Shown here one piece after another: positions 2,948 through 62,882 of a stretch of 64,000 bases of DNA. Made by a program: the position numbers and the translations under genes. The notes under the pieces were generated by a model. That model searched no databases. It saw nothing but the letters and a program-made list of their open reading frames with translations, and was not told the DNA's origin. This DNA is from a virus. Lineage: Duplodnaviria; Heunggongvirae; Uroviricota; Caudoviricetes. The number at the start of each line of letters is the position of its first letter. Position 1 is the stretch's first letter. The stretch covers positions 1-64,000 of IMG/VR virus record IMGVR_UViG_3300028591_000006. One strand, given 5' to 3'.

Positions 2948-2959
2948 TTAATTATAGAA
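2948..2959 (-). promoter_or_regulatory. phage promoter motif (TTCTATAATTAA, -10 only) upstream of 2311..2931
   Basis: Member of the repeated motif family described below. Confidence 0.5.
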
Positions 2960-2974
2960 TTATTTTATTTTCTG

Positions 2975-4306
2975 TTATATCCAAAGTGCTCCACGAAGAT
3001 TCTCTCTGCTGCGGAACTCAAGTTTAGCACCGTCCTGTTTGAATCCGTCCTGTTCAAATACAATGAAGTATTTCGTATTATAGATTGCTACCAGGATTGC
3101 AACATGACCATATTTATTTGTCTTGGAAGAATCCCAAATAAGGATATCTCCCTTGTCGTAATCTGCGGTAGGACTATCAACAGTCTTTTTGAGATTGGTA
3201 CACTTATCAAAAATATCCTTAGCTCCACCTTCTGCTCCTAATGCAGGGAATTGGTCTACACCAAGTACATCATGCACATACTGTCTCGCCAGGTCTACAC
3301 AATTATGAACCTTATAGTTATTACAAATATAAGTATGTGTATTGTCAGTTTCGAAATTATAAACCTCAGCTTTGAAAGTCTCGCTTATTTTCACCCTTTT
3401 GTTCATACGTTTTGTAGATTTACAAAGAGACAATCTATAAATTGGTTTTACAGATTTCACTTGTTTACCTCGAATAAAAATAGGTTCCGAACTTCTTTTC
3501 GAGATACGAATAGATTTATTTACATAACCCAACTTGATAGCAATTGCCTGTAAGCTATAAATTAAAGAAGGACTCGTGTTCATTAGTACAATCGTATTTC
3601 CTTTTTTATATCCATCAGCCTCAATAAACCCGTTAAGAATCAACTCAGATTCTCGATTACTAAAAATTAGAGGTAATTTTTTATATTCTCCTCGACATTG
3701 TTCGAGAATGATTTTAGTAAGCAAGGGATGCTCACGTTTAGAAATTGCTCCAACAAAAGCATGTTCAGATTCATGATGTGGTCTTTCAGAAGAGAGCATG
3801 TTGAGAGAATGTACAAAATCAACTTTCTTTTCTCCAAAAGTTAATCTTATTTCATCTGTTTTATTATCTTTATGTCTACCAATATTTCCATCTCCTAACC
3901 AGAATCCTAAAAATAAAAGTTCATTATCAGTAAGACCTGTCTCATCAAAACACTCCTTATCATAAAGAGATGCTAGTTTTGTTTTCAATTCTACTGCCGG
4001 AGAAAATGTTCCATCTTTGAAATAGAATGGGTGGTCAGGAGTTACGCAAAAATCACAAAGAGGTGTTCTAATGTTTACAACCTCTTTAATACTCTTGAAT
4101 GTTTTAGTAACTGTATTAACTTCATTATCATATCCGATTACTTTATCTCCAACAACAATATCCTGAATTGGTTTATAAGTCCAGTCAGCCATAAGAATCA
4201 TATGGTTTTTAGTGAAACACTGAAAACTCTTGTCACCTTTGAATACATCATCTTTATAATCAACCTTTTTACCTTTGTAAGTTTTAATAAACTCAGTTAG
4301 ATTCAT
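2975..4306 (-). CDS. CHAP-domain peptidoglycan hydrolase (endolysin-like) interrupted by a HINT+LAGLIDADG intein
   Basis: The extein is about 137 aa: MNLTEF...GDKSFQ | CVDLARQYVHDV...GHVAILVAIYN, which matches CHAP motifs Q-C-V-D and a downstream His. The intein spans residues 30-335: CFTKNHMILMAD...VGDKV (block A), CVTPDHPF (block B), LLFLGFWLGDGN and ELILNGFIEADGY (two LAGLIDADG motifs), and it ends ...YKVHN|C. Confidence 0.8.
   Translation of the reverse strand: MNLTEFIKTYKGKKVDYKDDVFKGDKSFQCFTKNHMILMADWTYKPIQDIVVGDKVIGYDNEVNTVTKTFKSIKEVVNIRTPLCDFCVTPDHPFYFKDGTFSPAVELKTKLASLYDKECFDETGLTDNELLFLGFWLGDGNIGRHKDNKTDEIRLTFGEKKVDFVHSLNMLSSERPHHESEHAFVGAISKREHPLLTKIILEQCRGEYKKLPLIFSNRESELILNGFIEADGYKKGNTIVLMNTSPSLIYSLQAIAIKLGYVNKSIRISKRSSEPIFIRGKQVKSVKPIYRLSLCKSTKRMNKRVKISETFKAEVYNFETDNTHTYICNNYKVHNCVDLARQYVHDVLGVDQFPALGAEGGAKDIFDKCTNLKKTVDSPTADYDKGDILIWDSSKTNKYGHVAILVAIYNTKYFIVFEQDGFKQDGAKLEFRSRENLRGALWI
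3302..4219 (-). mobile_element. intein (HINT splicing domain plus LAGLIDADG homing endonuclease) at the catalytic Cys of the CHAP domain
   Basis: Begins with Cys (TGT at 4219-4217) and ends HN (3307-3302), followed by the +1 Cys (3301-3299), which is the CHAP active-site Cys. Confidence 0.75.
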
Positions 4307-4710
4307 TCTTGTACCTCATTTACAACCTTATTTAGGAACTCATTGTATTCTGATTCATTTATCTCAGATACAATAACCTGTCCATTAATAACATTCTCAG
4401 CTACAATAAGAAAACCACTTTTAAGAATAATGTACTGATTCCACTTATCACCATCATAATGTATAATCAACTTTGGTATTTCCAAACGATTATCCACATA
4501 CTTACAGTTCTCATACTTGAAATAACCGGTACATTTCACACCATCGCCATTATCTTCATCAAACCTGTAATACTTACCTTTCTTAAGGTTGATGATTTCC
4601 TTGGCGTGTTTGAATGCAAGTTCAGCCTGTTTCTTATTCAGCTTCTCGTCCTGTTCCTTTAATGATTTTCTTTTAAGATTAATCTTTTCAATTTCGTCCT
4701 TATACTCCAT
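4303..4710 (-). CDS. hypothetical protein (135 aa)
   Basis: Minus-strand ORF. Confidence 0.4.
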   Translation of the reverse strand: MEYKDEIEKINLKRKSLKEQDEKLNKKQAELAFKHAKEIINLKKGKYYRFDEDNGDGVKCTGYFKYENCKYVDNRLEIPKLIIHYDGDKWNQYIILKSGFLIVAENVINGQVIVSEINESEYNEFLNKVVNEVQE

Positions 4711-5011
4711 ATATTCTCCCTTTAATTACAATTTCTATATCTCTCTTGGCACAACAACCAAGTATTTTATATTCCCCATAAGAATAAACGTTATACAGTC
4801 CATGAAGGAACCAATTAGAATAGATTGGAAAAAGCGAATAACGCTTTGTTCGATTATCATACAGTACAACGCAGGTCATGTCTTTGTATTTAACAATGTC
4901 ACCTACCTGTATCTGCTGCCCATGCTTATCGAAATACATTGTCCATGTACTAATAGGATAATATATGTTTGTATAAATTGTGTTGTACAATCGTTTTAAT
5001 TTTTTAATCAT
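4700..5011 (-). CDS. hypothetical protein (103 aa)
   Basis: Minus-strand ORF. Confidence 0.4.
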   Translation of the reverse strand: MIKKLKRLYNTIYTNIYYPISTWTMYFDKHGQQIQVGDIVKYKDMTCVVLYDNRTKRYSLFPIYSNWFLHGLYNVYSYGEYKILGCCAKRDIEIVIKGRIYGV

Positions 5012-5130
5012 TCAAATAGTCTCCTAAGCAAATCTTTTATTACATTTATTAATATTAGAACGGAGAAGGTTAGTGCTGGTGCACAGAATACAACATAGAT
5101 GATTATGTAGATTATGTCCTTGACTGTCAT

Positions 5131-5538
5131 TTATTCAGTCTCCTTTGGAAGTACAATTTCTTTCCAAGCATAAACAGAATCTATATTCTGCATTACACAA
5201 GATTTTTCATTAAAGATTTCAAACTGATTACTTCTGTAATAACCTATCAATGCTTGAACTCCATTTATAGTTTTTCTTGCGAGTAAAAGCATTGCACTTT
5301 CAGACGGAAGTTCATCTTTCACATAATGCCATTCATTATCCACAATCTGATTTACCTTTTCATTTGATTTCACACCAAACTCAAAGCCCTTGTTATAGCC
5401 GAACTCAGCACCTTTCTGCCATTTTTCTTTAGAACATTCCTTACAGGTACAATGTTCCCTACTTTTACATTTTTCATATCTTGAGCAATCTTTACAAACA
5501 CTGTCTATCACCCATTCTTCTGCTTCTTTCTCAAACAT
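5131..5538 (-). CDS. MFEKE-family protein, paralog 1 (135 aa)
   Basis: Shares MFEKEAEEW, KGAEFGYN, EWHYVKDELP and VYAWKEIVLP blocks with 37414..37821 and 38173..38508. Start uses the GGAGTAACTATG junction module. Confidence 0.6.
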   Translation of the reverse strand: MFEKEAEEWVIDSVCKDCSRYEKCKSREHCTCKECSKEKWQKGAEFGYNKGFEFGVKSNEKVNQIVDNEWHYVKDELPSESAMLLLARKTINGVQALIGYYRSNQFEIFNEKSCVMQNIDSVYAWKEIVLPKETE

Positions 5539-7508: not shown

Positions 7509-8405
7509 TCATCTCAATATTTCCTCTTTCTTACCAATAATAGAACCATCCAAGAAAGTGAAATTATCGAAAAGCTCTTTTAATTTAAGATTCTCGTAAC
7601 CGGTACCTACATCACAATCATAATAATCACGCTCAAAGAAAAAGTCGATAATGAGATGTACACTATTACATTCCTTATTCTTTATCCAGATAAGCGGCAT
7701 GAGTAATTCATGATTAAACTCAAGACCACTCTTCTTTTTCCAAGCATCAATTAATTCCTGTACTGAATTGAACGGAACATATTCAACCTCATCTTTAATT
7801 CGCCATTCCTTCCATTTGTCAAAAGCACTTGCACGAGGAATTTCAATGAGATGCCAATCTATCCATTCATCACCTTCTTTATACTGAATTGTCTTACCCT
7901 GTTTCCAGGCAAGCATTATCTTTTCAAATGATTTGTAGTTGTCATACCACTTAATACATTCATCTTCGGTACCTTTGAATACAACATACCTATCATTCTT
8001 TGAGTTAGTGCGGGAAAGTCCATAGTCATCAAGAACAATATACCAGGTTGTTTCAGGTTTGATACGATATTCGTCTGTAGTGAATAATGGTGCAAACCCT
8101 TCTAATACATCTTCCCAATCACCATTATGATTTTTGAACTGTAGCTGCTTACCTTCAAGATATGCTTTACGGAACTCATAGTATGGGTCGTAATATGCAA
8201 ACTGATAATCACAAGTTATTTCTCCATCGTCATAATAAGTGAATGGACAAACATCATCACCACTGCTAGATAACGTTACCATAGCTTCAGGATTATCTTT
8301 TACCTGACGTCTTAATGATGCAATATCCTGTGCAACAAATCCTTTCTTATCTTCAAGTATTTTATCCCATTCAAAATAAACGAATTTCTTATTATACAAT
8401 TCCAT
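7509..8405 (-). CDS. hypothetical protein (298 aa)
   Basis: Minus-strand ORF. Confidence 0.5.
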   Translation of the reverse strand: MELYNKKFVYFEWDKILEDKKGFVAQDIASLRRQVKDNPEAMVTLSSSGDDVCPFTYYDDGEITCDYQFAYYDPYYEFRKAYLEGKQLQFKNHNGDWEDVLEGFAPLFTTDEYRIKPETTWYIVLDDYGLSRTNSKNDRYVVFKGTEDECIKWYDNYKSFEKIMLAWKQGKTIQYKEGDEWIDWHLIEIPRASAFDKWKEWRIKDEVEYVPFNSVQELIDAWKKKSGLEFNHELLMPLIWIKNKECNSVHLIIDFFFERDYYDCDVGTGYENLKLKELFDNFTFLDGSIIGKKEEILR

Positions 8406-8586
8406 AACTATTCCTCCACAATCATCTTCTTTAATTCTTCATAGCATTTATCACATAATCCAAAGTTCTTATTCATTTTTGTGTTTTCATAGTCATAACG
8501 GTGAATTGTGATAAATCTTCCTTTACCTGTTTTCCCACATACATAACATGGCTGTATTGTTATATTTTTAATTATTTTCATAATTT

Positions 8587-8799
8587 TTACTCATTCGCAT
8601 AAAGTGTCTTGTTGATGAACTCAATAAGCTGCTCTTTAGACATAATCTGTAAAGCAACATCCAATTTTGATTTTACGTCATCTGCTTTTACACTTTCAGA
8701 ATGAAGTTTTTCTTCAAGCTCCCAAATCTCAGGTTTCATAGCAAGAGCTTCTTCCTGTGTATAAACATGTGGTTTTTTCTTAATTACATCTGGATTCAT
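8587..8799 (-). CDS. hypothetical protein (70 aa)
   Basis: Minus-strand ORF. Confidence 0.35.
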   Translation of the reverse strand: MNPDVIKKKPHVYTQEEALAMKPEIWELEEKLHSESVKADDVKSKLDVALQIMSKEQLIEFINKTLYANE

Positions 8800-8846
8800 A
8801 ATTTTACTCCTTTCCTTAATACTAGAAAGTTGCGTCTCCCCAGATT

Positions 8847-9044
8847 TTATTCTTTCGTTTCTGCACCAATCTCTATTTTATCACCAATCTTCACATGAAA
8901 ATTCTTGAAGGTCTTACGGATAATTCTCATTACAAGTGCAAGAACAATACATAGCAGTATGGCAGCTCCAACAATAAATGCAACATCACTTCCCGTAATC
9001 TCATCATCATATTCAGATGGTACTTCTTCATAATATTCTTCCAT
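8847..9044 (-). CDS. small membrane protein (65 aa, one TM helix)
   Basis: Acidic N-terminus followed by the hydrophobic stretch VAFIVGAAILLCIVLALVM. Confidence 0.4.
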   Translation of the reverse strand: MEEYYEEVPSEYDDEITGSDVAFIVGAAILLCIVLALVMRIIRKTFKNFHVKIGDKIEIGAETKE

Positions 9045-9156
9045 ACGCTATTCTCCTATTCTTCGAGATTTCGAAACATTATCTTAAGGACTATAAGTAT
9101 TACCGGAATCGCAATAACGAATCCGGTAATAAAACCAATTATAAACATCTTCATGA

Positions 9157-9432
9157 TTAATATGCGAAAGTAAAACTCTTTTTCTGGTCTTTCACTGCAC
9201 CAGTAAACAATACAATACGGATACCTTCATAACTCCAGGAATCAGGAATAATGTTTGATGTATCCTTGAACTCCTTCATACGTTCTTTCCATTCTTTTTT
9301 CGGAACATGTGTACTCACTTCGAGTTCTACACGATTATCTCCACATTGTCTGATACGTGCCTCATCACAAAACAGCTGATACAATCTACTCTTCAGTTCT
9401 TCCATCTTTATCTCCCGGCAATTTAAGTGCAT
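9157..9432 (-). CDS. hypothetical protein (91 aa)
   Basis: Minus-strand ORF. Confidence 0.35.
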   Translation of the reverse strand: MHLNCREIKMEELKSRLYQLFCDEARIRQCGDNRVELEVSTHVPKKEWKERMKEFKDTSNIIPDSWSYEGIRIVLFTGAVKDQKKSFTFAY

Positions 9433-9944: not shown

Positions 9945-9956
9945 TTAATTATAGAA
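9945..9956 (-). promoter_or_regulatory. phage promoter motif (-10 TATAAT), 7 nt before ATG 9940
   Basis: TTCTATAATTAAAAGT-ATG. Confidence 0.45.
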
Positions 9957-10051: not shown

Positions 10052-10079
10052 TTAATTATAGAAACTCTGATTTTCTCAG
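10052..10079 (-). promoter_or_regulatory. phage promoter c (CTGAGAAA-N-TTCTATAATTAA)
   Basis: Full bipartite motif; 13 nt between CTGAGA and TATAAT. Confidence 0.55.
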
Positions 10080-10170: not shown

Positions 10171-10198
10171 TTAATTATAGAAAGGAATGTATTCTCAG
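10171..10198 (-). promoter_or_regulatory. phage promoter d (CTGAGAAT-N-TTCTATAATTAA)
   Basis: Full bipartite motif. Confidence 0.55.
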
Positions 10199-10266: not shown

Positions 10267-10301
10267 CTTAATAATAGAATGTGCCTTTATTTCGCTCTCA
10301 G
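10267..10301 (-). promoter_or_regulatory. phage promoter e (variant: CTGAGAGC...TTCTATTATTAAG)
   Basis: Variant of the motif, immediately downstream of the terL stop. Confidence 0.4.
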
Positions 10302-12236: not shown

Positions 12237-12695
12237 TTATTTCTCCTTTCTTAATTCCTTTTTGTAATCACATATATCCTTGCCATCATTGATTTCAACC
12301 ATACGGTCTAATATACGTTTCAGACGTTTGAGTACATCTTTATCCTTTCGATAATATCCATACAAATAATGAACAAGGTCATGAGTTGTTCCATTCAGAG
12401 GAACGAACCTATCTTTCTTCAGGATTATATACTCTGAGGGATTTAAGCACATATGATGAAGATTGAATCTCTTTGGTAATTTCTTTAATGTAATAGGGTC
12501 CACCTGACCTTTGAAGAAATTACGGAACTCTTTCCAAATAGTAGTTTCACGGAACTTAGATTTCTCCTGCTGGTTAAGGGCTTTACCTTTACAAGATTCA
12601 ATAAAGTCCTGTTCCCTTTTCAGTTTTTCTTTTTTCTGTTCTGCACGTGTCAATTTGTGTTTACTCCTTATAAAATATATAAAAGTCCTTGACAT
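12237..12695 (-). CDS. HNH-motif endonuclease-like protein adjacent to terL
   Basis: NLHHMCLNPSEY...NGTTHDLVH resembles an HNH motif. Position immediately upstream of terL. Confidence 0.4.
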   Translation of the reverse strand: MSRTFIYFIRSKHKLTRAEQKKEKLKREQDFIESCKGKALNQQEKSKFRETTIWKEFRNFFKGQVDPITLKKLPKRFNLHHMCLNPSEYIILKKDRFVPLNGTTHDLVHYLYGYYRKDKDVLKRLKRILDRMVEINDGKDICDYKKELRKEK

Positions 12696-12750
12696 ATTTT
12701 AGTATCTGTTATAATATTTACTAAAGTATTTTAGTATCTGTTACGATAAT
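12689..12750 (+). promoter_or_regulatory. sigma70-type promoter for the plus-strand cassette, with a duplicated 17-mer operator-like element
   Basis: TTGACA (12689-12694), 15-nt spacer, then TGTTATAAT with the TATAAT hexamer at 12710-12715. TATTTTAGTATCTGTTA occurs twice, at 12695-12711 and 12727-12743. Confidence 0.6.
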
Positions 12751-17660: not shown

Positions 17661-17690
17661 TAATAATTATAGAAACTAAAAAATTCTCAG
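17661..17690 (-). promoter_or_regulatory. phage promoter upstream of the gp32-like SSB gene
   Basis: CTGAGAAT-13-TATAAT. Confidence 0.55.
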
Positions 17691-18179: not shown

Positions 18180-18191
18180 TTAATTATAGAA
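18180..18191 (-). promoter_or_regulatory. phage promoter (-10 motif) upstream of the UvsY-like gene
   Basis: TTCTATAATTAA followed by SD gaggt and the ATG. Confidence 0.45.
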
Positions 18192-18196
18192 ATATA

Positions 18197-19130
18197 TTAT
18201 TTTTCAAAAATTTCATTGTAAATACTGTTACTCACATAATTACCATTTATTCTCCCATCACGCTTATACTTTTCAGTAGATAGATACCGTTTCTTAAACA
18301 CAGAAGACTCGTAACAATTTATAGGGTTTATACAATTTATATCAGGATTTATTCCCGGAAGAATCCAATCTTCAACTTCTTCTTTCTTCAGGATAATATT
18401 TCCATTTGTATATTCAGGCAGTTCTACAGACCTCTTCAAAGAATATGTAATCATTTCATCTGTCAGTTTAGACTTCGCATAATCATCTTTTATATGTTTC
18501 AATAGAGCAATGTCATTGGATACTATAGTTCCATTATCTCCGGAGAAACAATCTATACCAAGCAGACGCAGAACGATTCTATCTGATTCATTTAGAGTTG
18601 CTTTCAGATGATATTTCTTATTAATGCAATAGAATTGTTTCCGCAGCATACCTTCAAGATAATATTCAAGGTTGCGTTCAGTTAAATCTTCTTTATCAAG
18701 TTCTTCAAGTTTATGACGGATTATATTCAGATTTATTCCATTTTCTGTCAATGTAATATTGCCCGTCTCACCAAACAAACGAATAAACTTAGTATACCAG
18801 TAGGTTATCGTGTCGTAGCCTGCAAAAGGTATATGAGTTATAGAAGGGTCAAAGTCTTCCTTGAAGTATCCCCTTATTGCAAGTTCATCTTTATACTCAG
18901 TTGTCTGTCTGATTACCGGATAATGATTTACAGATATTTCACGTTTATGTGTGGCAACAGCTTTCTCAAAAATAGTTGTAGGTAATGTATCAAAAGAACA
19001 TTTAAGACAAATTCCTTTTATAGGTTTTGGAGATATCTTCCATTCACCCAGGGAATATACTTCCATACCTTCTTTTATTTCTTCAATGGGAATCTGACCT
19101 TGTTTTGTTGTAATCAATCTGTATTGCATA
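18197..19130 (-). CDS. free-standing intein-derived homing endonuclease (HINT + degenerate LAGLIDADG), lacking splicing residues
   Basis: YRLITTKQGQIPIEEIKEGMEVYS resembles intein block A but without Cys1. SVNHYPV resembles block B. LRLLGIDCFSGDNG resembles a LAGLIDADG motif. The C-terminus INGNYVSNS is a degenerate block G. The track ORF's N-terminal 48 aa translate a structured leader. Confidence 0.5.
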
Positions 19131-19363: not shown

Positions 19364-19390
19364 TTAATTATAGAATATAAACAATTCTCA
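19364..19390 (-). promoter_or_regulatory. phage promoter (TTGAGAAT-13-TATAAT) driving the structured leader and the HINT-LAGLIDADG gene
   Basis: Full motif with T at position 1 of the upstream box. Confidence 0.5.
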
Positions 19391-19407
19391 AATTACATGT
19401 TATAAGA

Positions 19408-20498: not shown

Positions 20499-20528
20499 TT
20501 ATAATTATAGAAAAATCCTAATTCTCAG
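20499..20528 (-). promoter_or_regulatory. phage promoter upstream of the tRNA
   Basis: CTGAGAAT-13-TATAAT. Confidence 0.55.
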
Positions 20529-20964: not shown

Positions 20965-21307
20965 CTTCTTCTCCTGTAGATTCTATAACCGGAATATACC
21001 AGTGGTTGAGAATTTTCTTTTCTTCAGCAACTACGTTATACCATTCGCCTTTATAGAAAAGACTATCGTATTTTTCATAGTCGGCAAATTCTCGTTTGTC
21101 ATCTTCAATAAAATGAATGTTATGAGCATTTGCAGCATTAAGTCTTCGTTTAGAAGGTATGTGTAAATCCTGCCCTTCAAAGATATGCAATAACATAAAC
21201 AACTGGTCGCCACAAACAAGATATGCGGACAGTATTCTATCCATATCAATATTATTTTTCTGTGCCAGATTTAACAGCATTTTGTCGTTTGGTTTTGAAA
21301 ATATCAT
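20936..21307 (-). CDS. hypothetical protein (123 aa)
   Basis: Minus-strand ORF. Confidence 0.4.
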   Translation of the reverse strand: MIFSKPNDKMLLNLAQKNNIDMDRILSAYLVCGDQLFMLLHIFEGQDLHIPSKRRLNAANAHNIHFIEDDKREFADYEKYDSLFYKGEWYNVVAEEKKILNHWYIPVIESTGEEDGGETDNEQ

Positions 21308-21911
21308 TACGCCCTACCACGGATTTATCCATTGCTCGCCAAGCCGCAAAGGCTATTAAAGGTGCCGATTCTTTTTCCGATTTACCATCGTACTCGGTAT
21401 ATACCTTATATAACTCTTGAAGATTGACTTCTACCCCTAGTGAATTGGCATAACGCTCAAAATCACTGAACATTTCATATAATTCTGTTTCAGACTTCGC
21501 AATTAAATCAGATTGAATCACAGGGTCATCAGAATCTACTTCAGTCTTAGCAATCTTATTCTTCATATAAAGTCGCCAAGCTTCATTATTTATTCGGCTA
21601 ATACAGAAAGTCTGTATTTGTGAAATCTTGGGGTCAAACTCTGCTATTTTTGAAAGCAAAGCCTCCCAACACAAAGAATAGAAATTATCGAAATCTGTAA
21701 ACAGTGTCCACCTTTTATAAACTTTCCAACACCAGTATTTATAATCGTGTATAAACTCAGGTGTAAAAGTATGCGTAGTCAGATAACTTGTAAATCCACT
21801 GTACTTTGGTTGTTTCGCCATAACTCTACATCTCCATGGTTCCGGCAAGTCCATACTTAATCGTAATCTTATCCTTATACCATCGTTCAACTTCATGAAC
21901 CATACGGGCAT
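21252..21911 (-). CDS. sigma-70 region-2-like factor (gp55-like late sigma candidate)
   Basis: FYSLCWEALLSKIAEFDPKISQIQTFCISRINNEAWRLY parallels sigma region 2.1-2.4 (...kFDP..g.rFsTYA.wwIrq...). No clear region 4. Confidence 0.45.
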   Translation of the reverse strand: MPVWFMKLNDGIRIRLRLSMDLPEPWRCRVMAKQPKYSGFTSYLTTHTFTPEFIHDYKYWCWKVYKRWTLFTDFDNFYSLCWEALLSKIAEFDPKISQIQTFCISRINNEAWRLYMKNKIAKTEVDSDDPVIQSDLIAKSETELYEMFSDFERYANSLGVEVNLQELYKVYTEYDGKSEKESAPLIAFAAWRAMDKSVVGRNDIFKTKRQNAVKSGTEK

Positions 21912-28866: not shown

Positions 28867-28894
28867 TTAATAATAGAATCCTTGTGATTTTCAG
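28867..28894 (-). promoter_or_regulatory. phage promoter upstream of the clamp gene (variant CTGAAAAT...TATTAT)
   Basis: Abuts the polymerase stop codon. Confidence 0.45.
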
Positions 28895-30912: not shown

Positions 30913-30960
30913 CTTAATAATAGAAAGAGCCACCTTTTCAGGTGGCTCTTATATTCAGCA
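30913..30960 (-). promoter_or_regulatory. terminator hairpin plus -10 element upstream of the polymerase gene
   Basis: 9-bp hairpin agagccacc/ggtggctct (30927-30950). The following U-tract merges into TTCTATTATTAAG, which lies directly before the polB ATG. Confidence 0.45.
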
Positions 30961-30969
30961 GTTTATATT

Positions 30970-31593
30970 TTAAGCAACAGCATAACCGATTCTGTTCCAG
31001 AAGGATTTTATCTCACCCATAACTGAATCCACAATTGCCGGAGTATAACCAAACTTTCTGCTGATTGAAACGGTGTTTGGTTTTACTTTGGCATGTGCAT
31101 TCACCCATTCTTGGCTGATGATATACTTCAGAACCTGATATCCTTCATACGAAAGTTCTTCCTTTGCTACAACCATAAGTTCATTGTCGTCAATGTTGTA
31201 ATTGCGGCTTTCGATTGTACTTTCATAAGAATTATCTTCTGTACCATTGTGCTTTGCGTTTGTTGCAAAATCTTCATAGTGTGAAATCTCTTTCATCGTG
31301 CACTTATAGTAATCTTCAAGTCTTCCCATAAGATTCTGAAAGAGAAATGTTGTAAACTTTGTACCCTTGGAACCACTATAAGACTGAAGACACTGTGCAT
31401 AAATCAGCTGACCTTCTGCATACACATCATCGAACTGTACGTCAGGTCTTTCAAATCTTTTCTTTTTCCATGTAGAGAGTGCAAGTTTGTAAATCATGTT
31501 TTTGCATGATTCGAAATCAGGTAAGTTTTGTTTGTTCATAATTTGCTCCTTTGGTTTAGTTTTTTTATTTAGGATAACTCTAATATAACACAT
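30970..31593 (-). CDS. sigma-70-family factor (regions 2 and 4)
   Basis: DVYAEGQLIYAQCLQSYSGSKGTKFTTFLFQNLMGRL aligns with sigma region 2.2-2.3 (dLiQEG.lgL..av.kFd..kG.kFsTYA.wwIr). The C-terminal NTVSISRKFGYTPAIVDSVMGEIKSF resembles a region-4 HTH. Probable start is MNKQNLPDF. Confidence 0.5.
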   Translation of the reverse strand: MCYIRVILNKKTKPKEQIMNKQNLPDFESCKNMIYKLALSTWKKKRFERPDVQFDDVYAEGQLIYAQCLQSYSGSKGTKFTTFLFQNLMGRLEDYYKCTMKEISHYEDFATNAKHNGTEDNSYESTIESRNYNIDDNELMVVAKEELSYEGYQVLKYIISQEWVNAHAKVKPNTVSISRKFGYTPAIVDSVMGEIKSFWNRIGYAVA

Positions 31594-31627
31594 ACTAAAA
31601 CCTTAGTCAAGCAAATTATTACAAATA

Positions 31628-35333: not shown

Positions 35334-35345
35334 ATAATTATAGAA
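35334..35345 (-). promoter_or_regulatory. phage promoter (-10 motif) upstream of 34722..35315
   Basis: TTCTATAATTAT. Confidence 0.4.
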
Positions 35346-40630: not shown

Positions 40631-40634
40631 ACCT

Positions 40635-40661
40635 TAATTATAGAATTCCGGATAAACTCAG
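40635..40661 (-). promoter_or_regulatory. phage promoter upstream of the Rad50 C-half gene (CTGAGTTT-13-TATAAT)
   Basis: Full motif between the SNF2 stop and the 40630 start. Confidence 0.5.
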
Positions 40662-42412: not shown

Positions 42413-42424
42413 TTTAATATTAGA
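42413..42424 (-). promoter_or_regulatory. phage -10 motif (TTCTAATATTAA) 2 nt upstream of the SNF2 ATG (leaderless-type)
   Basis: TTCTAATATTAAATA-ATG. Confidence 0.35.
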
Positions 42425-42542
42425 ATCAGATTCTACCAAACTACCATCACAACGTGGGCATCTAGGTGTTCGCCATAAATCCTTTGCTAAGAAAATGATT
42501 TCTGTCTTACATTTTACACATATCAATAACTTATAATTCATA

Positions 42543-44798: not shown

Positions 44799-44828
44799 TT
44801 ATAATAATAGAATTATATCTTTTTTCAG
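44799..44828 (-). promoter_or_regulatory. phage promoter (CTGAAAAA-13-TATTAT) abutting the DnaB ATG
   Basis: Motif variant. The -10 lies 4-9 nt before the ATG at 44793. Confidence 0.4.
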
Positions 44829-45784: not shown

Positions 45785-47410
45785 TTAAGCAACATAATTC
45801 TCAAGTTCATGATTTCCGGCAAGCGGAATATCATAACGTACAGTATGTTCAAAATCTTCTGCAACTTCAGTGTAATCAAGACCTTTCCACTTTATCTTTG
45901 ATTCACCAAAACGCATTTTAAGCAGCTTTATTTTATCTCCTATCTCGGCAATTATTTCTTCCCAGGACTTGTATCCGCCAAACTTCATGGCAGAATTCTT
46001 GAACCAGTTTACAGTCTTTACCGTATCCATTACAAAAAATATCGCCATATAAGAATATAAAGTTGGTCGGCTGATTCCAAAAATTTTTGCAATCTCAGTC
46101 AGAGAATAATCGGCTGCAAGAAGAGCCATAAAGTTCTTCTTCATCTTCTTGGCACGTTTAAGCTTCTCTGAACGCTGATTGCGGTTCCAGTATACCGAAC
46201 TTTTCCACTGTCCGTTACTTTCGTTCTTGTCCTTATAGTTTGTTACAGACCATCTGTAAAGCGAATGAACCTGACCGGAAATCTCCTTATCCGAGTGCGG
46301 CTCTTTCATGCACTTGTCTGCAATCTCAATTTTATTTTCAAGAAGGAAGTCTTCCAAATCTTTCTCAGACGGAACGTTTCCCTTTCTCATATTGCTCCAC
46401 ATCCATTCACGTGCATAAATCATAGTCAGCTTATGACGTGAAAGTTCAGGATTCTTTTCGTCAATATCCTGTACATCAAGATTAATGTTCTTTCTCAGAA
46501 TGACTTTCTTTTCATCAAGGAAGTTTATATAATCTGAAAAATCATTACCAGCCGGTCTTCTCTCCCTTAAACTTATAAATCTGTTGTTTACAAAGAGATA
46601 AGACTCCTGGCACACATTAAAAGGATTGCGGCACATTGTACCCTGATAATAAAGGTCAGTACCGCTGAATATTCCCTTAAAATACTTGGCAAATCTTTTT
46701 ACTGTCCGGATATAGACATCGTGGTTTCCTTCATTGCGTTTCACAGTCGGAATATATTTACCATTGGCATTCTTTTCACTTAAATCAATTGTCTTTACAT
46801 ATACCGGATTCTTAAGATAGAACTGTATCTGCCAGTGTCCTGTGCTGATATGTCTTGTGCAAAGACACTCAGGAATATCTCCAAGACTACGCAGCTTATC
46901 AAAGAAAGTCTTTACATCAATTCTCTGGTCAATATCCACGGCAATAAGGTCTTTACGCATTGAAGACTTGCCGCATTCAGCCATAGGAAACATGCTGTAT
47001 TTTCTGTATATACCAAGAAGGCTCTTGAAGTCTTTTTCAGAAGGTCTCAATGTTTCTGTCGTATGCACACGCATAGGACTTCCTTTCTTGGTTTCCTTCA
47101 CGAGAAAACTCATCTGCATGGCATCAGCCAGTTTCTCATAATGCGTTTCATATACTTCAGAATCTCCGATAAGGTCCGGGTCTTTTACAAGATTAAAAGG
47201 ATTTGTTACTGTAGTGAATTGTATTTTATTGGATTTCTTTATATAATTCTTATAACATTTCGTTCGCAGACCGTCAGATTTTCCAACTTTTTCCTGGCGG
47301 TCTTTTTTATTTTCTTCAGCACAATCCATATTTATAATTATAGAATTATCTGATTTTTCGAGGATATTGATATTTTCAGGAGTTTCCGTTATATAATTAA
47401 GACAGTCCAC
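45785..47410 (-). CDS. putative AEP-family primase (PrimPol-like); real start may be the internal ATG at 47330
   Basis: LIAVDIDQR (AEP motif I, DxD), STGHWQIQF (motif II, sG.H) and GNHDVY (motif III). The promoter motif at 47334-47362 lies inside the annotated N-terminus. Confidence 0.4.
   Translation of the reverse strand: MDCLNYITETPENINILEKSDNSIIINMDCAEENKKDRQEKVGKSDGLRTKCYKNYIKKSNKIQFTTVTNPFNLVKDPDLIGDSEVYETHYEKLADAMQMSFLVKETKKGSPMRVHTTETLRPSEKDFKSLLGIYRKYSMFPMAECGKSSMRKDLIAVDIDQRIDVKTFFDKLRSLGDIPECLCTRHISTGHWQIQFYLKNPVYVKTIDLSEKNANGKYIPTVKRNEGNHDVYIRTVKRFAKYFKGIFSGTDLYYQGTMCRNPFNVCQESYLFVNNRFISLRERRPAGNDFSDYINFLDEKKVILRKNINLDVQDIDEKNPELSRHKLTMIYAREWMWSNMRKGNVPSEKDLEDFLLENKIEIADKCMKEPHSDKEISGQVHSLYRWSVTNYKDKNESNGQWKSSVYWNRNQRSEKLKRAKKMKKNFMALLAADYSLTEIAKIFGISRPTLYSYMAIFFVMDTVKTVNWFKNSAMKFGGYKSWEEIIAEIGDKIKLLKMRFGESKIKWKGLDYTEVAEDFEHTVRYDIPLAGNHELENYVA
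47334..47362 (-). promoter_or_regulatory. phage promoter inside the annotated primase N-terminus, 7 nt before the internal ATG 47330
   Basis: CTCGAAAA-14-TATAAT then TATAAAT-ATG. Confidence 0.4.
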
Positions 47411-47689: not shown

Positions 47690-47823
47690 TTTATCTTAAT
47701 TATAGAAATTGTATAAGACTGATATATTCGTTCTGAGAGCCTTTATGGGCATTGGTAATGATATTAGTCGATTTAATGCAGAAAGTCGCTCAGAAACAAT
47801 CCTAGGGGCATTATAGACCAAAT

Positions 47824-49106: not shown

Positions 49107-49120
49107 AAAAAATATATAAT

Positions 49121-50158
49121 TTACTCTTTAGTTTTTCTTTTCTTACCCAAATTGAACTGTCTTAATTTTTCTTTAGTTTCTTCTTTCATTGGTAATTTCC
49201 CTCTAACAAATCCTTCTGGACATTTGAATGATTGGACTTGTTTGATTCCATTGTTCCACCATTTCATACCGGTATTACCAACATTATTAAAATTAATTCT
49301 TCCAGGAACAAACCCTGGCGGACACTCTTTACCACGATAATTTTCTTTCCCATTATTGTACCAGTGGGTGTTAACCAAGTTATCTTTAGGTTTACCTGTA
49401 AGAGATTTTGATAAACGTTTTCTGTGCTCTTCTGAAAATTTTCTACCAGTCAATGCAAGAATCATTCTTTCTCTCATTTCAGGTGTCCATTTCCTACCCT
49501 TAGCTTTCTCAGACATTTTCCTACGAGATTCTTCGCTAAGATGTCGACCTTTATTAATGTCAGACATTCTTTTTCTAAACTCTGGATTCTTTCGAGAAAT
49601 TTTATATTTTTCTGAGTTCTTAACTTTTTCACCTGTCTTTTTTCGTTCTTCAGGATTTTGATATCTCTTTTTAACTATTTCTGACATCTTTCTTTTAGTT
49701 TCTAAATTGGCTTTGTGTCCTTTGTTCGGAGAAGGTCTACCCTTTAATTTCTCAGAAATATTTTTACGTTGTTCTTCGGTAATTATTTTTCCTTTGTTTG
49801 CAAGACTTATTTTACGTTTAATTTCAATTTGTCTAATTTCGGAAAGATATAACCAATTACCTTTTCCACCAAGACCACCCGGTGCAATATTAAATTCCGC
49901 TTTTCCAATTTGTTTATACAAACGAATATACTCGATTTCGAGAATATCTAATATTTCTTGTGTATAACAAATTGCTAAAATTCTCTTAGAGAAATTCTCA
50001 ATACCATATTTCTTTTCAGCAGCAAGAATGTGTTTTCCTTTACCCATATAAGAAGTGTCAGTTTCCGGAGTTTTATTCAAAGGACAATGACGCTGACCAA
50101 TATAATTTCTTCCATCACCATTATAGGTAATTTCATAAATGTAATATGTCTGTAACAT
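49121..50158 (-). CDS. GIY-YIG homing endonuclease with NUMOD3-type repeats (paralog 2; start trimmed to MLQTYYIYEITYN)
   Basis: YYIYEITYNGDGRNYIGQ...SYMGKGKHI is a GIY-YIG core. C-terminal half carries repeated basic modules of the form SEEHRKRLSKSLTGK. SD aaggaga before the ATG at 50158. The track ORF's N-terminal extension translates the structured leader. Confidence 0.75.
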   Translation of the reverse strand: MLQTYYIYEITYNGDGRNYIGQRHCPLNKTPETDTSYMGKGKHILAAEKKYGIENFSKRILAICYTQEILDILEIEYIRLYKQIGKAEFNIAPGGLGGKGNWLYLSEIRQIEIKRKISLANKGKIITEEQRKNISEKLKGRPSPNKGHKANLETKRKMSEIVKKRYQNPEERKKTGEKVKNSEKYKISRKNPEFRKRMSDINKGRHLSEESRRKMSEKAKGRKWTPEMRERMILALTGRKFSEEHRKRLSKSLTGKPKDNLVNTHWYNNGKENYRGKECPPGFVPGRINFNNVGNTGMKWWNNGIKQVQSFKCPEGFVRGKLPMKEETKEKLRQFNLGKKRKTKE

Positions 50159-50314: not shown

Positions 50315-50327
50315 ATAAATTATAGAA
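50315..50327 (-). promoter_or_regulatory. phage promoter (-10 motif) driving the structured leader of GIY-YIG paralog 2
   Basis: AATTCTATAATTTAT. Confidence 0.4.
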
Positions 50328-50587: not shown

Positions 50588-50621
50588 ATAAGAAATATAT
50601 AATTATATTTGAGGAGTTATT

Positions 50622-50908: not shown

Positions 50909-50939
50909 GTTGACATAATCTTTTAGTATCTGTTATAAT
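50909..50939 (+). promoter_or_regulatory. sigma70-type promoter for plus-strand gene 50959..51303, sharing a 19-mer with the 12.7-kb promoter
   Basis: TTGACA (50909-50914). TTTTAGTATCTGTTATAAT (50921-50939) is identical to 12698-12716. Extended -10 TGnTATAAT. Confidence 0.6.
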
Positions 50940-54608: not shown

Positions 54609-54643
54609 AATTACAATTCTCCTTGATATTAAAATATATAATT

Positions 54644-60230: not shown

Positions 60231-62042
60231 TTAGAACATACCTTTGTACATCTTTTCGAGTGTTTCCATATTGCGAGTATTGTTTGACTTGATTTCTTTC
60301 TTTTCTTCAGAAATCTGACGCTGAGAACTCTGGAACAGTCTCTGACGCTCTTCAGCTTCGTGCATTGAGCGTAACTGCATTTCGTTCTTCTTAGCCTCAT
60401 TTGCAGAACGGATAGCCTGGCGTGTCTGTCTGTTAGCATTCATTACTTCTCTGCGAGCAGATGTAATCGGCTTTCTCACAGGAGTTGCACCAACAGGTCT
60501 GCGAGCGGCTGAAGTTACAGGCTTACGAACAGCAGATGCAACTGGCTTACGAGCAGGTGTTTCAAGTGGTCTGCGAGCAGCCGATGTAACCGGTTTACGA
60601 GCAGATGTATTGCGAACTTCGTCACGGAGACGTGAAGAACGAACAGGTTTACGAGCCATATTTGGTCTGCGAGCAGCAGATGATGCAACACGTTTCTTAG
60701 CAAGGTTCATACCTTCCTTACGACCTTCAATACGTGCACTTGCAATTTTCTTTGCAATTACAACTCTTTCGGCAGCTGAGAAGATATCAACTGATTTACC
60801 TTTAGATATAACAACCTTGTTATTCTTGAGAACAGTTGAGTAAGCACCCTTACCAGCATCAACATATGCTGCGGCACAGCAGAGAAGACCCTGAGAACCG
60901 TTTCTGAATGCGAATCCAACCTTACCGCATTTGATAACCTTTCCATTGAGAGTTTCAATTTCTTTTGTAGAATTGATTACCTTGTATACGTTGTAACCCT
61001 TTGCAAGGCGACTTGATACTTTCTGCATACGAACCTTTTTCTTGCTGTTTGTAAGAGGTACATCTACAACGATAATATCTTCATCAGGAACATCAACACC
61101 TTCTGCGTTAAGTTTTTCTGTCGTGTCACCAGAGTTGTTTGTTGCATCTTTCTGAGTAATCTGCTCAGGTGATGTTGCATTCTCTGGATTTCCTTCTTCA
61201 TGATATCCTGGATTTCCTTCACCAGTTGTTTCAGCAGGTTTATTTTTTGGGTCTGTTGCTCCACCGTTTGGTTCAAAATCTTCGCTTGACTTCAACAGTT
61301 TTGAACAGAACTGATTCTTTCTGTCTTTATTTGAACGGATGATTTTGATGAGTTTACACTCAATCTTTTTCTTCTTCTTATCTTCCTCTTCCTCTTTCTT
61401 TGCAAGGGCAGAAACGATTACCCAGTGAGCAGGAGTAAGTTTAGCAGAACCAACCATCTTCTTTACTTTCTTGAAAGCTGCAGACCATGCTTTCTTGTTA
61501 GCACTTGATTTGAGTACAACAAATCCCTTCTTGTACTTGTTAGATTTACTGTTACCGATTACGAGAACATCATCTCCAGGCTCAGCTGCGTCATCTTCAA
61601 TTTCAAGTGGAATTTCATCACAAGTATCAAATACAGTACATTCCATGTCATCAATAGTATCGTTGCGAATTTCATCAGGTGTCTGTTCAAGTTCAACGGC
61701 ACCATCTTCAGATACCATTACACGAACAGCTGAATTTGTAAGTTCTTCAGGAAGTTCCTCTTCCTCAGAGAACTCATCTTCAGCAGGTTCTTCTTCGTGA
61801 GTTTCATCAATCATATCACGAACTTCGTCAAGGAGAGCGTCTGCATCAATCTCTTTTTCCTCAACATTTGCTTTCTCAATTACAGCGTCAGCCAAAGCCT
61901 CGATTGCCTGAACTGCATCCACGATGTCTTCTTCTGTTACTTCGACATCGGCAAACTCTTCTGCATTAGAAACCTCGTCAATGATTGATTCATCAACTTC
62001 GAACTGGTCTTCTTCTGCGGACTTAATCAAACGTTTAGCCAT
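60231..62042 (-). CDS. highly charged protein with an acidic N-terminus and basic RKPV(T/A)SAARRP tandem repeats (603 aa)
   Basis: ARKPVTSAARRP, ARKPVASAVRKPVTSAARRPVGATPVRKPITSARR repeats. The N-terminal 150 aa are acidic. Confidence 0.5.
   Translation of the reverse strand: MAKRLIKSAEEDQFEVDESIIDEVSNAEEFADVEVTEEDIVDAVQAIEALADAVIEKANVEEKEIDADALLDEVRDMIDETHEEEPAEDEFSEEEELPEELTNSAVRVMVSEDGAVELEQTPDEIRNDTIDDMECTVFDTCDEIPLEIEDDAAEPGDDVLVIGNSKSNKYKKGFVVLKSSANKKAWSAAFKKVKKMVGSAKLTPAHWVIVSALAKKEEEEDKKKKKIECKLIKIIRSNKDRKNQFCSKLLKSSEDFEPNGGATDPKNKPAETTGEGNPGYHEEGNPENATSPEQITQKDATNNSGDTTEKLNAEGVDVPDEDIIVVDVPLTNSKKKVRMQKVSSRLAKGYNVYKVINSTKEIETLNGKVIKCGKVGFAFRNGSQGLLCCAAAYVDAGKGAYSTVLKNNKVVISKGKSVDIFSAAERVVIAKKIASARIEGRKEGMNLAKKRVASSAARRPNMARKPVRSSRLRDEVRNTSARKPVTSAARRPLETPARKPVASAVRKPVTSAARRPVGATPVRKPITSARREVMNANRQTRQAIRSANEAKKNEMQLRSMHEAEERQRLFQSSQRQISEEKKEIKSNNTRNMETLEKMYKGMF
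60430..60660. repeat. tandem 33-bp coding repeats (5-6 copies) encoding RKPVTSAARRP units
   Basis: Repeated ggtctgcgagcRgcYgaWgtWacMggYttWcgaRcag units inside 60231..62042. Confidence 0.5.
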
Positions 62043-62127
62043 TTTACTCCTCCATGGATATAAAAATAGTATTGTTATTATAAATATATAAATGAATGTA
62101 TAGAGAAATAAGAAATAACTGTGTTAA

Positions 62128-62160
62128 AAAGCAAAGGGCGACAGTCACAAAGACCATCGC
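62128..62160 (-). terminator. intrinsic terminator downstream of 62206..62541
   Basis: Stem agggcga/tcgccct followed by a U-rich tract on the minus strand. Confidence 0.4.
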
Positions 62161-62205
62161 CCTCAGATACTGTTTGTACACATGGTACATCAGCTAATTA
62201 TAAGA

Positions 62206-62541
62206 TTAATATCGTAACTCGAATCCTGTAAGTTCTGCAAATTTGTTGCATTTTTCTTCAAAATCTTCGATTTCTTCAGGATTTCCCACAAAAGCAACAT
62301 CAGATGCCATATAATTAAATTGTGGTTCAACTAAACTTAAAGCATCATCACCAAATGCTTCATATGCGGCATTTTCTATGGCAACTTGCCATATAGCACC
62401 ACAATCAATCGAACCAAATTCATTTTTACATTCATCAATAGCATTGGAAAGAATCTCATCATCCATACTTCCAAAGCATGATTCTATATCGAGTTCTCCA
62501 CAACCGATAATATTAGATAATATAAATTCTGCTGTTGTCAT
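62206..62541 (-). CDS. small acidic protein (111 aa)
   Basis: Minus-strand ORF with an SD. Followed by a terminator. Confidence 0.45.
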   Translation of the reverse strand: MTTAEFILSNIIGCGELDIESCFGSMDDEILSNAIDECKNEFGSIDCGAIWQVAIENAAYEAFGDDALSLVEPQFNYMASDVAFVGNPEEIEDFEEKCNKFAELTGFELRY

Positions 62542-62552
62542 TCATATTCTCC

Positions 62553-62882
62553 TTACAAGCCATAATTAATTATAACGTACTGTTCATCAGGGTCACCAAC
62601 AACATAATAACCATTCTCTTCAATCCATTCATCAACACTCATACCATTAAGATTGTAATTAGATTCAATCTCGTTATAAGGTTTGATTTCACCATTAATG
62701 GCAATATTATCAACAATATATGACGGTGTATTATATTCAGGTTTAAGCCAACCCATTTCTTCAAGGTCATCAAATATACCCCACCATACCGATTCCGGAT
62801 AATACTTGTCATATCCATATTGCTGTACTCTTTCCCAGAGCATGTCTTTGAATGTGTCGTCATCAACTTCCATAGTAACCAT
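62553..62882 (-). CDS. hypothetical protein (109 aa)
   Basis: Minus-strand ORF. Confidence 0.45.
   Translation of the reverse strand: MVTMEVDDDTFKDMLWERVQQYGYDKYYPESVWWGIFDDLEEMGWLKPEYNTPSYIVDNIAINGEIKPYNEIESNYNLNGMSVDEWIEENGYYVVGDPDEQYVIINYGL

Follow-up and report, generated by a model that had tools for sequence, protein, structure and literature searches.

A strand-specific family of promoter-like motifs and two sigma-like proteins in an uncultured myovirus of the ruminant gut

That phage sigma factors read temporal classes of promoters is textbook knowledge for phages T4 and SPO1. In the Bacillus phage SPO1 the host sigmaA is followed by a middle sigma factor, gp28, and then by the late sigma gp33/gp34, with middle promoters of the form AGGAGA-N17-TTTNTTT; in the late system of T4, gp55 works with TATAAATA at -13 to -6. 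Phages phiEco32 and 7-11 encode a small ECF-like sigma factor (gp36) and possess middle and late promoters of their own, redirecting the host core polymerase to a long phage consensus centred on the -10 element. The middle promoters of T4 require an excellent -10 element and carry a box 12 +/- 1 bp from it (PMC2988021).

We analysed a window of 64,000 nt, representing about 45% of the ~143-kb sequence of an uncultured myovirus from the ruminant gut; since the window covers this fraction of the genome, other regulators may exist. The Shine-Dalgarno-rich leaders of this phage, together with a relative that was binned in a Eubacterium metagenome-assembled genome, make a Firmicute host likely. The window encodes a clamp loader and carries three separate motif families, denoted here M (putative middle class), E (host-type) and L (candidate late), as well as two proteins with sigma folds, ORF A and ORF B.

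The M motif has the architecture YTGARAAT-N8-TTC-TAWWAT-TAA. Exact matches to TTCTAWWATTAW occurred 18 times in the 64-kb window, all of them on the minus strand (18/18; 0.54 expected), and a position weight matrix derived from the copies detected, at a score of at least 14, 20 sites on the minus strand, none on the plus strand and none in shuffled sequences. An initial annotation of this DNA, which had suggested such a scan and counted about 19 copies, was therefore accurate in number, and the outer coordinates it gave for the family match the TATAATTAA copies at positions 2948 and 62566. The -10 element it described as TATAAT is indeed strongly over-represented and strand-specific, but more variable than that, with TATTAT, TAATAT and TAAAAT also found. 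Across 18 copies, T-12, A-11, A-8 and T-7 of the TAWWAT hexamer were fixed and variation was confined to -10 and -9, a pattern that fits -10 recognition by the sigma70 family. The core of the motif would be a 12-bp extended -10 element, TTC-TAWWAT-TAA at -15 to -4, where positions are counted from predicted start sites.

The upstream 8-mer lies 11 nt from the -10 hexamer and is present at this fixed distance in 12 of the 18 exact copies (~60% of copies in this clade). CTGAGAAT-N8-TTCTATAATTA, equivalent to N11 before TATAAT, gave 10 matches at up to three mismatches (0.13 expected), and a further pattern count for the same architecture gave 12 (0.06 expected). The 13-nt spacing first proposed did not hold: CTGAGAAT-N13-TATAAT yielded no match even with two mismatches. 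Expressed in hexamers, the arrangement is TGARAW-N12-TAWWAT, and of 57 sites from the window and its relatives, 21 had TGARAW at a distance of exactly 9 nt before TTC, with every other offset represented at most twice. All nine sites originally listed as having a box do carry a YTGARAAT-like sequence, seven as a perfect TGARAW hexamer (sites 10052, 10171, 17663, 19364, 20501, 28867 and 44801) and two with one mismatch (40634 and 47334); the box also occurs at 18180 and 30914. This element would constitute a -35-like box at -31 to -24, roughly 4 bp nearer to the -10 than the -35 of sigma70 promoters.

Copies of the M motif are found directly 5' of replication genes, one tRNA and short terminator-ended units, and none was detected by the matrix scan in the structural module (50.4-63.7 kb). 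Three copies in the first 9 kb, all on the minus strand as are those that follow, precede ORFs: TTCTATAATTAA (2948..2959; no box) is followed after 16 nt by the ATG of ORF 2311-2931, the variant TTCTAATATTAA (5049..5060; no box) after 37 nt by ORF 4700-5011, and a weaker copy, TTCTAGTATTAA (8816..8827), by ORF 8587-8799. Candidate promoters with a perfect box occur 88 nt before ORF 16528-17574 (17663..17690) and upstream of a tRNA-Gln (20335-20425) and ORF 19408-20313 (20501..20528). Others precede ORF 17694-18164 (18180..18207, box TTGAAAAA, with the orthologous promoter aligned in five relatives), ORF 18197-19273 (19364..19391, box TTGAGAAT), ORF 27770-28831 (28867..28894, box CTGAAAAT) and the SLT-like ORF 34722-35315 (35334..35345, degenerate box), and an M-like copy, TTCTATAATTTA (50316..50327), is followed after 100 nt by the homing-endonuclease ORF 49121-50215.

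At six genes the ATG occurs 3-7 nt past the 12-mer and lacks a Shine-Dalgarno sequence, so that, counted from the A of the start codon, TAWWAT falls at -12/-7, as expected for the -10 of leaderless mRNAs. These are the genes for DNA polymerase (28895-30910; M at 30914..30941, ATG after 3 nt), an SNF2 helicase (40665-42410; TTCTAATATTAA variant at 42414..42425, 3 nt) and a DnaB-like helicase (43372-44793; 44801..44828, box CTGAAAAA, 7 nt), together with ORF 40034-40630 (40634..40661, box CTGAGTTT, 3 nt), ORF 45785-47329 (47334..47361, box TCGAAAAA, 4 nt to the in-frame ATG at 47329) and the small ORF 9755-9940 (9945..9956, no box, 4 nt). The same arrangement was seen in relatives L018 and L008. 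Many M transcripts would accordingly start at or beside an ATG and be leaderless. Four further copies head short units that end in an intrinsic terminator: 10052..10079 (box CTGAGAAA; ~75 nt), 10171..10198 (perfect box CTGAGAAT; ~85 nt), 10268..10279 (TTCTATTATTAA, weak box; ~60 nt) and 47696..47707 (no box; ~80 nt). The terminator loops of these four predicted small RNAs all contain CUCC(U/C)A, which resembles an anti-Shine-Dalgarno sequence.

Both sigma-like ORFs noted in the initial annotation have a sigma region-2 fold, with starts later than those assigned there, so that each encodes 189 aa. ORF A (30970..31539, minus strand, true start 31539) combines a sigma2 domain with a C-terminal, four-helix, sigma4-like domain that was predicted with a pLDDT of 84-93. 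Pfam Sigma70_r2 matched 23/23 members of its family (best E 8e-7), its profile matched SigA region 2 in the PDB, and its KF(T/S)TY motif aligns with KFSTY of that region. Top Foldseek matches were essentially all sigma-factor structures, and alignments to two-domain sigmas spanned 168-190 columns at a probability of 0.97-0.99. ORF A is thus a sigma factor by Pfam and by fold, and is predicted to bind core polymerase. No Pfam region-4 match was found in it, and its last helix, judged by eye, has few basic residues, for which reasons box binding by this domain is putative.

The gene for ORF A lies behind a host-type promoter (31582..31610, minus strand; TTGACT-N17-TATATT with TG at -15/-14), and a canonical sigmaA-type promoter precedes ORF A in all relatives, including those at 49% identity (L014-L020, L025, L028, L029). 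On sequence evidence, this is the SPO1-like placement of a phage sigma gene behind an early promoter of the host sigmaA. A hairpin terminator, whose stem changes are compensatory across relatives, follows ORF A and abuts the DNA-polymerase promoter; the hairpin (30926-30949) holds the box of that promoter (M at 30914) in its loop.

ORF B (21252..21821, minus strand, true start 21821) matches sigma2 domains and T4 gp55 in its fold, and, as in gp55-type factors, a sigma2-like fold occurs with no recognisable sigma4; there was no sequence-level match to gp55. The L motif, AATTATATATTT, is confined to 49-62 kb of the window and is conserved in relatives L026 and L027. Four ORFs at 48-62 kb, within the structural module or next to it, have the motif upstream on the minus strand, and at several genes of this module 5 nt separate its core, TATATATT, from the ATG. 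Candidate L promoters were found at 49110..49121 (AATTATATATTT; ORF 48306-49106 starts with ATG after 3 nt), at 50593..50604 (ORF 50342-50587 starts with ATG after 5 nt; the ortholog is conserved in L027), at 54632..54643 (before the 1102-aa ORF 51300-54608) and at 62082..62093 (ATTTATATATTT, before ORF 60231-62042). In the window the only candidate for a promoter of the ORF B operon is a degenerate TTCTAAGATTTA near 23.03 kb, spotted by eye.

The 12-mer is retained in relatives whose ORF A is only 49% identical, and the box only in closer relatives, being missing from L028 and L029 where ORF A is present. Conservation of the box, proposed at the outset as a decisive point, therefore extends to the closer relatives but not to the distant ones, and this loss of the box beside a preserved 12-mer indicates that the 12-mer, rather than the box, is the core determinant. 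TTCTAWWATTA showed a 10-25-fold coding-strand enrichment in 7/7 non-redundant ORF A loci tabulated, an association confounded by phylogeny, and was absent from five DNA-polymerase-related loci lacking ORF A, a comparison confounded in the same way.

We tentatively propose, at a likelihood somewhat short of even, a cascade running from host sigmaA through ORF A and the M motif to ORF B and the late genes. The host sigmaA holoenzyme would first transcribe ORF A from its canonical TTGACW-N17-TGnTATAWT promoter, and this transcript would end at the terminator abutting the DNA-polymerase promoter. ORF A would then join the host core polymerase, with sigma2 reading the 12-mer and the C-terminal domain reading the box, and the resulting polymerase would turn on the genes for replication, a tRNA and a number of short RNAs that end in terminators. 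ORF B, made in this middle phase, would direct late transcription from the AATTATATATTT sites. In favour of this scheme are the motif statistics, the strand bias, the fixed spacing of the box, the leaderless ATGs, the pattern of variation in the -10 hexamer, the segregation of M from L sites, the sigma folds of both proteins, the host-type promoter and terminator of ORF A, and the presence of the motif in loci that carry ORF A. The phage-directed transcription programme originally envisaged is borne out in its phage-specific promoter family; the start sites and the pairing of factors with motifs are what we infer.

An unlikely, though not negligible, alternative is appropriation in the style of T4, in which host sigmaA reads TAWWAT and region 4 is replaced at the box, near -30, by an activator of the phage that may act together with an anti-sigma4 partner. 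The M sites do have an excellent -10 at -12 to -7 and a box 11-12 bp away, within the 12 +/- 1 bp of T4 middle promoters to which they were initially likened, and the box is optional, just as MotA boxes tolerate deviation. Yet the M consensus at this position, YTGARAAT, is not a MotA box, (a/t)(a/t)(a/t)TGCTTtA, and is unrelated to its TGCTT, and no homologue of MotA or AsiA was found among the 50 distinct ORFs scanned against Pfam in this window of about 45% of the contig. Recognition by sigmaA does not explain the strict conservation of TTC (-15 to -13) and TAA (-6 to -4), relatives keep the 12-mer and lose the box, and the phage invests instead in two sigma-like proteins.

As the -10 hexamer matches the sigmaA consensus perfectly, host sigmaA could also read the M sites alone, as strong '-10-only' early promoters with canonical start-site geometry, the box and flanks then representing AT-rich context or a proximal UP-like element. 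We consider this improbable. M sites do not show the canonical sigmaA/sigma70 arrangement (a -35 TTGACA 17 +/- 1 bp from the -10, and/or TGn): the 17-bp position is without information content, -15 to -13 is TTC rather than TGn, and a generic sigma70 scan gave no enrichment (52 matches vs 51.5 expected). The preference of the host enzyme is instead seen in the uniform E family of the same genome, with its -35, 17-bp spacing and TGn. These sites form a set apart from M, as the initial annotation had it, with the form TTGACA-N15-18-(TGn)TATAAT; besides the promoter of ORF A (31582-31610, minus), it comprises two tandem plus-strand copies (12689..12747; TTGACA..TTTTAGTATCTGTTATAAT and TTTTAGTATCTGTTACGAT) before plus-strand ORFs at 12827-13530, and TTGACA-N18-TATAAT with the same conserved spacer (50910..50939, plus) before the plus-strand ORF 50959-51303. 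Further, a terminator isolates the gene for ORF A from that for DNA polymerase, and the non-AT box (TGAGAA) at a fixed offset, with invariant TTC and TAA, argues for a dedicated reader.

That dedicated reader could be ORF B, using the 12-mer as a gp55-type '-10-only' element, while ORF A either serves another class, perhaps the late AATTATATATTT sites, or has a modulating role at the E family. The 12-mer persists without a box in distant relatives and occurs in loci found via ORF B, whose family is the wider one (80 vs 24 matches for ORF A). This assignment is improbable, as the ORF B operon has M-type promoters in L015 and L025, which would make it circular; the T4-late-like TATATATT core at structural genes is the natural target of a gp55-type factor, with T4 as precedent, and it is ORF A that has a host-type promoter to itself. 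That the M repeat is no promoter at all, serving in processing, packaging or recombination or being a remnant of repeated cassette duplication, is very improbable, because, although copies 10268 and 47696 lie within a duplicated block of ~125 nt, most copies share the motif with differing flanks, and their place just 5' of ORFs, one-strand orientation, TAnnnT-type variation and orthologous intergenic conservation fit promoters.

The proposed cascade is apparently the familiar early/middle/late timing scheme of phages in a new sequence form, and such classes are, to our knowledge, essentially undescribed in large uncultured phages of gut Firmicutes. Three tiers can be read from the sequence: host-type early, TTC-TAWWAT-TAA middle with a -30 box, and T4-late-like. 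They provide annotation rules for a phage clade of ruminant metagenomes and make two divergent sigma proteins available to biochemistry, along with the sites predicted for them; as compact, orthogonal promoter/sigma pairs they could become genetic parts for Clostridia-type hosts. The short distance between box and -10 and the many leaderless starts are unusual. We know of no characterised sigma70-family factor that uses a distance of 12 bp. A more speculative reading, which we hold to be rather unlikely, is that ORF A is a two-domain sigma reading such a compressed promoter, and that its regulon couples leaderless, Shine-Dalgarno-independent mRNAs with the four small RNAs bearing CUCC(U/C)A loops; the phage would then shift translation as well as transcription its own way.

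Among described systems, the middle promoters of T4 share with the M sites an excellent -10, a phage-specific box 11-12 bp upstream in place of a -35, and the driving of replication genes and a tRNA. They differ in the box ((a/t)3TGCTTtA in T4, YTGARAAT here), and in this phage the TTC and TAA flanks are invariant and a two-domain sigma is encoded, with no MotA/AsiA homologue found among the 50 ORFs scanned. SPO1 is resembled in the phage sigma gene behind a host-type early promoter, the succession of promoter families that each have a consensus, the likely Firmicute host and the lack of an own polymerase in the part of the phage seen. In contrast to SPO1, the middle-type sites have a sigmaA-like TAWWAT flanked by TTC/TAA and an upstream box just 12 nt away, and similarity to gp28/gp34 was not detected, PHROG giving a weak match to a generic sigma family.

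The likeness to the T4 late system concerns the L motif rather than M: its TATATATT core lies 5 nt before structural ATGs and a clamp loader is present, whereas ORF B resembles gp55 without a sequence-level match and the partners gp33 and gp45 were not identified. With phiEco32 and 7-11 the phage shares a small sigma and a long, -10-centred consensus; it differs from them in host phylum, in the consensus itself and in the KFTTY motif of ORF A, which is typical of group 1-3 sigmas rather than of ECF factors.

The minus strand, which carries nearly all of the coding sequence in the window (GC content 35%), is also the strand of the putative middle-class (M) promoter motif, the 12-mer TTC-TAWWAT-TAA with or without the upstream box YTGARAAT. 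Exact matches to TTCTAWWATTAW occurred at 18 sites in the window, all 18 on the minus strand, as compared with 0.54 expected; TTCTATAATTAA was found in nine exact copies, and 19 of its 21 matches with up to one mismatch were on the minus strand. A position weight matrix gave 20 hits on the minus strand of the window and none on the plus strand or in shuffled sequences. Comparison with related phages revealed variability at the two central hexamer positions. A generic sigma70 scan of the window showed no enrichment over shuffles, and a full-text literature search for an 11-mer form of the motif returned only unrelated papers. Alignment of the copies exposed a further conserved element, (C/T)TGA(G/A)AA(T), located 8 nt upstream of the TTC: CTGAGAAT-N8-TTCTATAATTA had 10 matches with up to three mismatches (0.13 expected), and TGARAW-N9-TTCTAWWATTA had 12 (0.06 expected). 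The initial annotation had therefore been essentially right in its observation, as its list of copies, their total number and both halves of the pattern are real, except for the spacing, which was off by two. The box and TATAAT are separated by 11 nt rather than 13; the pattern CTGAGAAT-N13-TATAAT has no match in the window even when two mismatches are allowed, and the value of 13 holds only if a -35-like hexamer is defined as YTGARA.

All strong M copies are found directly ahead of either a gene on the minus strand or a short, terminator-ended unit, and they precede replication and nucleotide-metabolism genes, a tRNA-Gln and small ORFs. The matrix scan found none between 50.4 and 63.7 kb, a region containing a T4-like portal gene and other large structural ORFs. 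In six minus-strand genes, those for the DNA polymerase (start at 30910), an SNF2 helicase (42410) and a DnaB-like helicase (44793) and three further ORFs (40630, 47329 and 9940), the ATG occurs only 3-7 nt after the 12-mer, too close for a Shine-Dalgarno sequence to fit between them. Were the A of each such leaderless ATG the transcription start, TAWWAT would occupy positions -12 to -7 or -13 to -8, TTC would span -15 to -13 and TAA -6 to -4, and the 8-mer box would lie at -31 to -24, a geometry that offers indirect but coherent support for -10 function and leaderless mRNAs. Variation within the hexamer is confined to -10 and -9, with T-12, A-11, A-8 and T-7 fixed, the pattern expected for -10 recognition by the sigma70 family. 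Among the aligned M copies the canonical 17-bp -35 position had no information content, and TGn was absent. Reading ATTAA as an ECF-style -10 element, 16 nt from the box, was ruled out because start sites would then fall inside the leaderless ORFs. A promoter for a phage single-subunit polymerase is unlikely, as the variation is TAnnnT-like and the window showed no gene for such a polymerase; its 1102-aa ORF had no Pfam match.

No cultured phage matched 22 kb of the sequence in a megablast search, and the best that tblastn with the portal reached was 25% identity, to myoviruses of Bacillus, Listeria and Streptococcus; the phage therefore has no characterised relative. Syntenic metagenomic contigs (loci denoted by L numbers) were recovered through homologues of the two sigma-like ORFs in the window, ORF A and the gp55-like ORF B. 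In L018, where ORF A is 65% identical by tblastn, YTGARAAT occurs at the same offset in seven coding-strand copies, several of which read TTCTATAATTAAAGTATG, and the DNA polymerase gene is preceded by ...AAAAGTATG; the box behaves in the same way in L001 and L007. Across eight non-redundant loci, TGARAW was found at one offset in 21 of 57 sites and at every other offset in no more than two, and a six-phage alignment of one orthologous promoter kept both TGAAAA and TTCTATWATTAA. The hexamer is mostly TAATAT in L015, L025, L028 and L029. In L028 and L029 (ORF A 55% and 49% identical) TTCTAATATTAA is retained but the box is undetectable, and thus the 12-mer is the core element and the box an accessory of the sub-clade to which the window belongs. 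On the coding strand, TTCTAWWATTA showed a 10-25-fold enrichment in all seven tabulated non-redundant loci with ORF A and was absent from five DNA-polymerase-related loci without it, a correlation that is confounded by phylogeny. L025 (JAFYHN010000004.1; ORF A 72% identical) was binned in the Eubacterium sp. metagenome-assembled genome RGIG7096, from water-buffalo abomasum; this binning and the presence of strong GGAGG ribosome-binding sites tentatively suggest a Firmicute host. Genes for homing endonucleases (GIY-YIG/NUMOD3, phrog_314), found in the window at 26686-27693 (-) and 49121-50215 (-) and in L014 at 14126-15115 as compared with L015, are present or absent between relatives that are collinear in other respects, indicating mobile insertions in the replication module.

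Single-sequence PHROG and Pfam searches were weak or empty for both sigma-like ORFs, and family-wide scans and structure prediction were therefore needed. ORF A (30970..31539 (-); true start 31539, 189 aa) is 98% identical to the homologous protein P0001; its single sequence stayed below the Pfam threshold, and a back-translated search of viral contigs found nothing. As a family, Sigma70_r2 was matched by 23/23 members (best E 8e-7), and the family profile aligned with region 2 of SigA, including KF(T/S)TY. The AlphaFold model (pLDDT 78) consists of two helical domains with a disordered linker of ~25 residues between them, and Foldseek matched it to essentially sigma factors only (probability up to 0.99), with alignments to two-domain sigmas spanning 168-190 columns; the predicted fold is what points to a region 4. 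ORF B (21252..21821 (-); start at 21821, 189 aa) is 100% identical to P0025, encoded on a 142,789-bp contig. Sigma70_r2 was matched by 18/34 members of its family, and its profile had no hits among PDB sequences. The hhalign probability between ORF A and ORF B was 13%, so no relationship between the two families is detectable. In the distant relative L029, the gene two positions ahead of the sigma gene is an inserted IS605 OrfB/TnpB (Cas12f1-like) gene (7924-9192).

ORF A itself is directly preceded by a host-type (sigmaA) promoter, TTGACT-N17-TATATT with TG at -15/-14, and every relative has the same canonical promoter before its ORF A gene, with the form TTTACA-N17-TGtTATAAT in L028 and L029. 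It belongs to a family, E, with the common spacer TTTTAGTATCTGT (5 matches, 0.09 expected), comprising a tandem pair at 12697/12729 (+) (within 12689-12747), the ORF A promoter at 31582 (-) (span 31582-31610), a weaker copy with three mismatches at 31615 (-) and a copy at 50921 (+) (within 50910-50939). By position, these promoters serve ORF A and small ORFs of the plus strand, and their shared spacer might act as an operator that shuts off early transcription. E promoters of the form TTGACA-N15-18-TGnTATAAT also occur at L015 ~18760, L025 1465 and 10280, and L027 1919 and 3600. At the end of the ORF A gene is a hairpin (30926-30949 (-)) whose stem covaries among relatives (GCCACC/GGTGGC, CCCACC/GGTGGG, TCCACC/GGTGGA and CCCACT/AGTGGG in the window and its equivalents in L018, L015, L025, L008 and L028), with a TGAAAA or TGAGAA loop and a T-tract that is also the 12-mer, the -10 region, of the DNA polymerase promoter. 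This terminator therefore insulates the polymerase gene from early transcription. A 97-aa ORF with a weak DUF6522 hit (23056-23349 (+)), preceded in the window by TAGAAA-N17-TATAAT, is conserved in every relative as an opposite-strand ORF (L014 16031-16324, L018 14633-14926, L029 12586-12879).

A third motif, AATTATATATTT (core TATATATT), occurs upstream of structural-region ORFs, often 3-5 nt before the ATG, at 49110-49121, 50593-50604, 54632-54643 and 62082-62093, all on the minus strand. It is kept in L026 (8123) and L027 (4073, 6886 and 10787), where the portal is 90% identical. This L motif, which resembles the T4 late promoter TATAAATA in both sequence and position, is a candidate late promoter for ORF B.

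Four of the M-preceded units (9957-10279 (-) and 47608-47707 (-)) are made up of the promoter, 60-85 nt of sequence and a strong intrinsic terminator (z-scores for folding, -3.9 to -5.8), with no ORF and no Rfam hit; the Rfam scan detected only the tRNA. All four terminator loops carry the anti-Shine-Dalgarno-like CUCC(U/C)A, and these units are candidate phage small RNAs. A ~125-nt duplication (10255-10400 (-) and 47690-47835 (-); 75% column identity), upstream of the promoters at 10268 and 47696, contains the identical core ATATCATTACCA, with AATCGAC just before it. The tRNA-Gln (anticodon UUG; 20335-20425 (-)) is 91 nt long by ARAGORN, its extra length appearing to be a long variable arm, unusual for tRNA-Gln; its leader of ~75 nt (20426-20500), with the GC-rich stretch GTGGGTCGTCGGCAAGCGGTAAGCCAACGGC, directly follows an M promoter.

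The simplest model, held tentatively and at slightly under even odds, is a cascade with putative factor-to-motif assignments. Host sigmaA would use the E promoters, producing ORF A; ORF A, with the host core polymerase, would then use the M promoters; and ORF B, as a product of the M phase, would use the L promoters. M-type sites precede the ORF B operon in L015 and L025. Of the interpretation offered by the initial annotation, a phage-directed transcription programme and two factors with sigma folds are supported, and its MotA-like mechanism is not established. In T4, middle promoters combine a MotA box with a sigma70 -10 element at a spacing of 12 +/- 1 bp (PMC2988021), which the 11-12 bp geometry of the M sites fits, and the main rival to the cascade is accordingly that host sigmaA reads the perfect -10 while some other activator binds the box. 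However, the box sequence differs, a Pfam scan of 50 distinct ORFs detected no MotA/AsiA homologue, this mechanism leaves the invariant TTC and TAA flanks unexplained, and distant relatives do without the box. Alternatively, ORF B may be the factor that reads the 12-mer. Given that the genome also has a separate family of canonical promoters, host sigmaA is unlikely to recognise the M sites by itself. The M system belongs to a well-known type, as a variant found in an undescribed phage clade, and is set apart by its compressed -30/-10 geometry, its many leaderless genes and its M-driven short RNAs.
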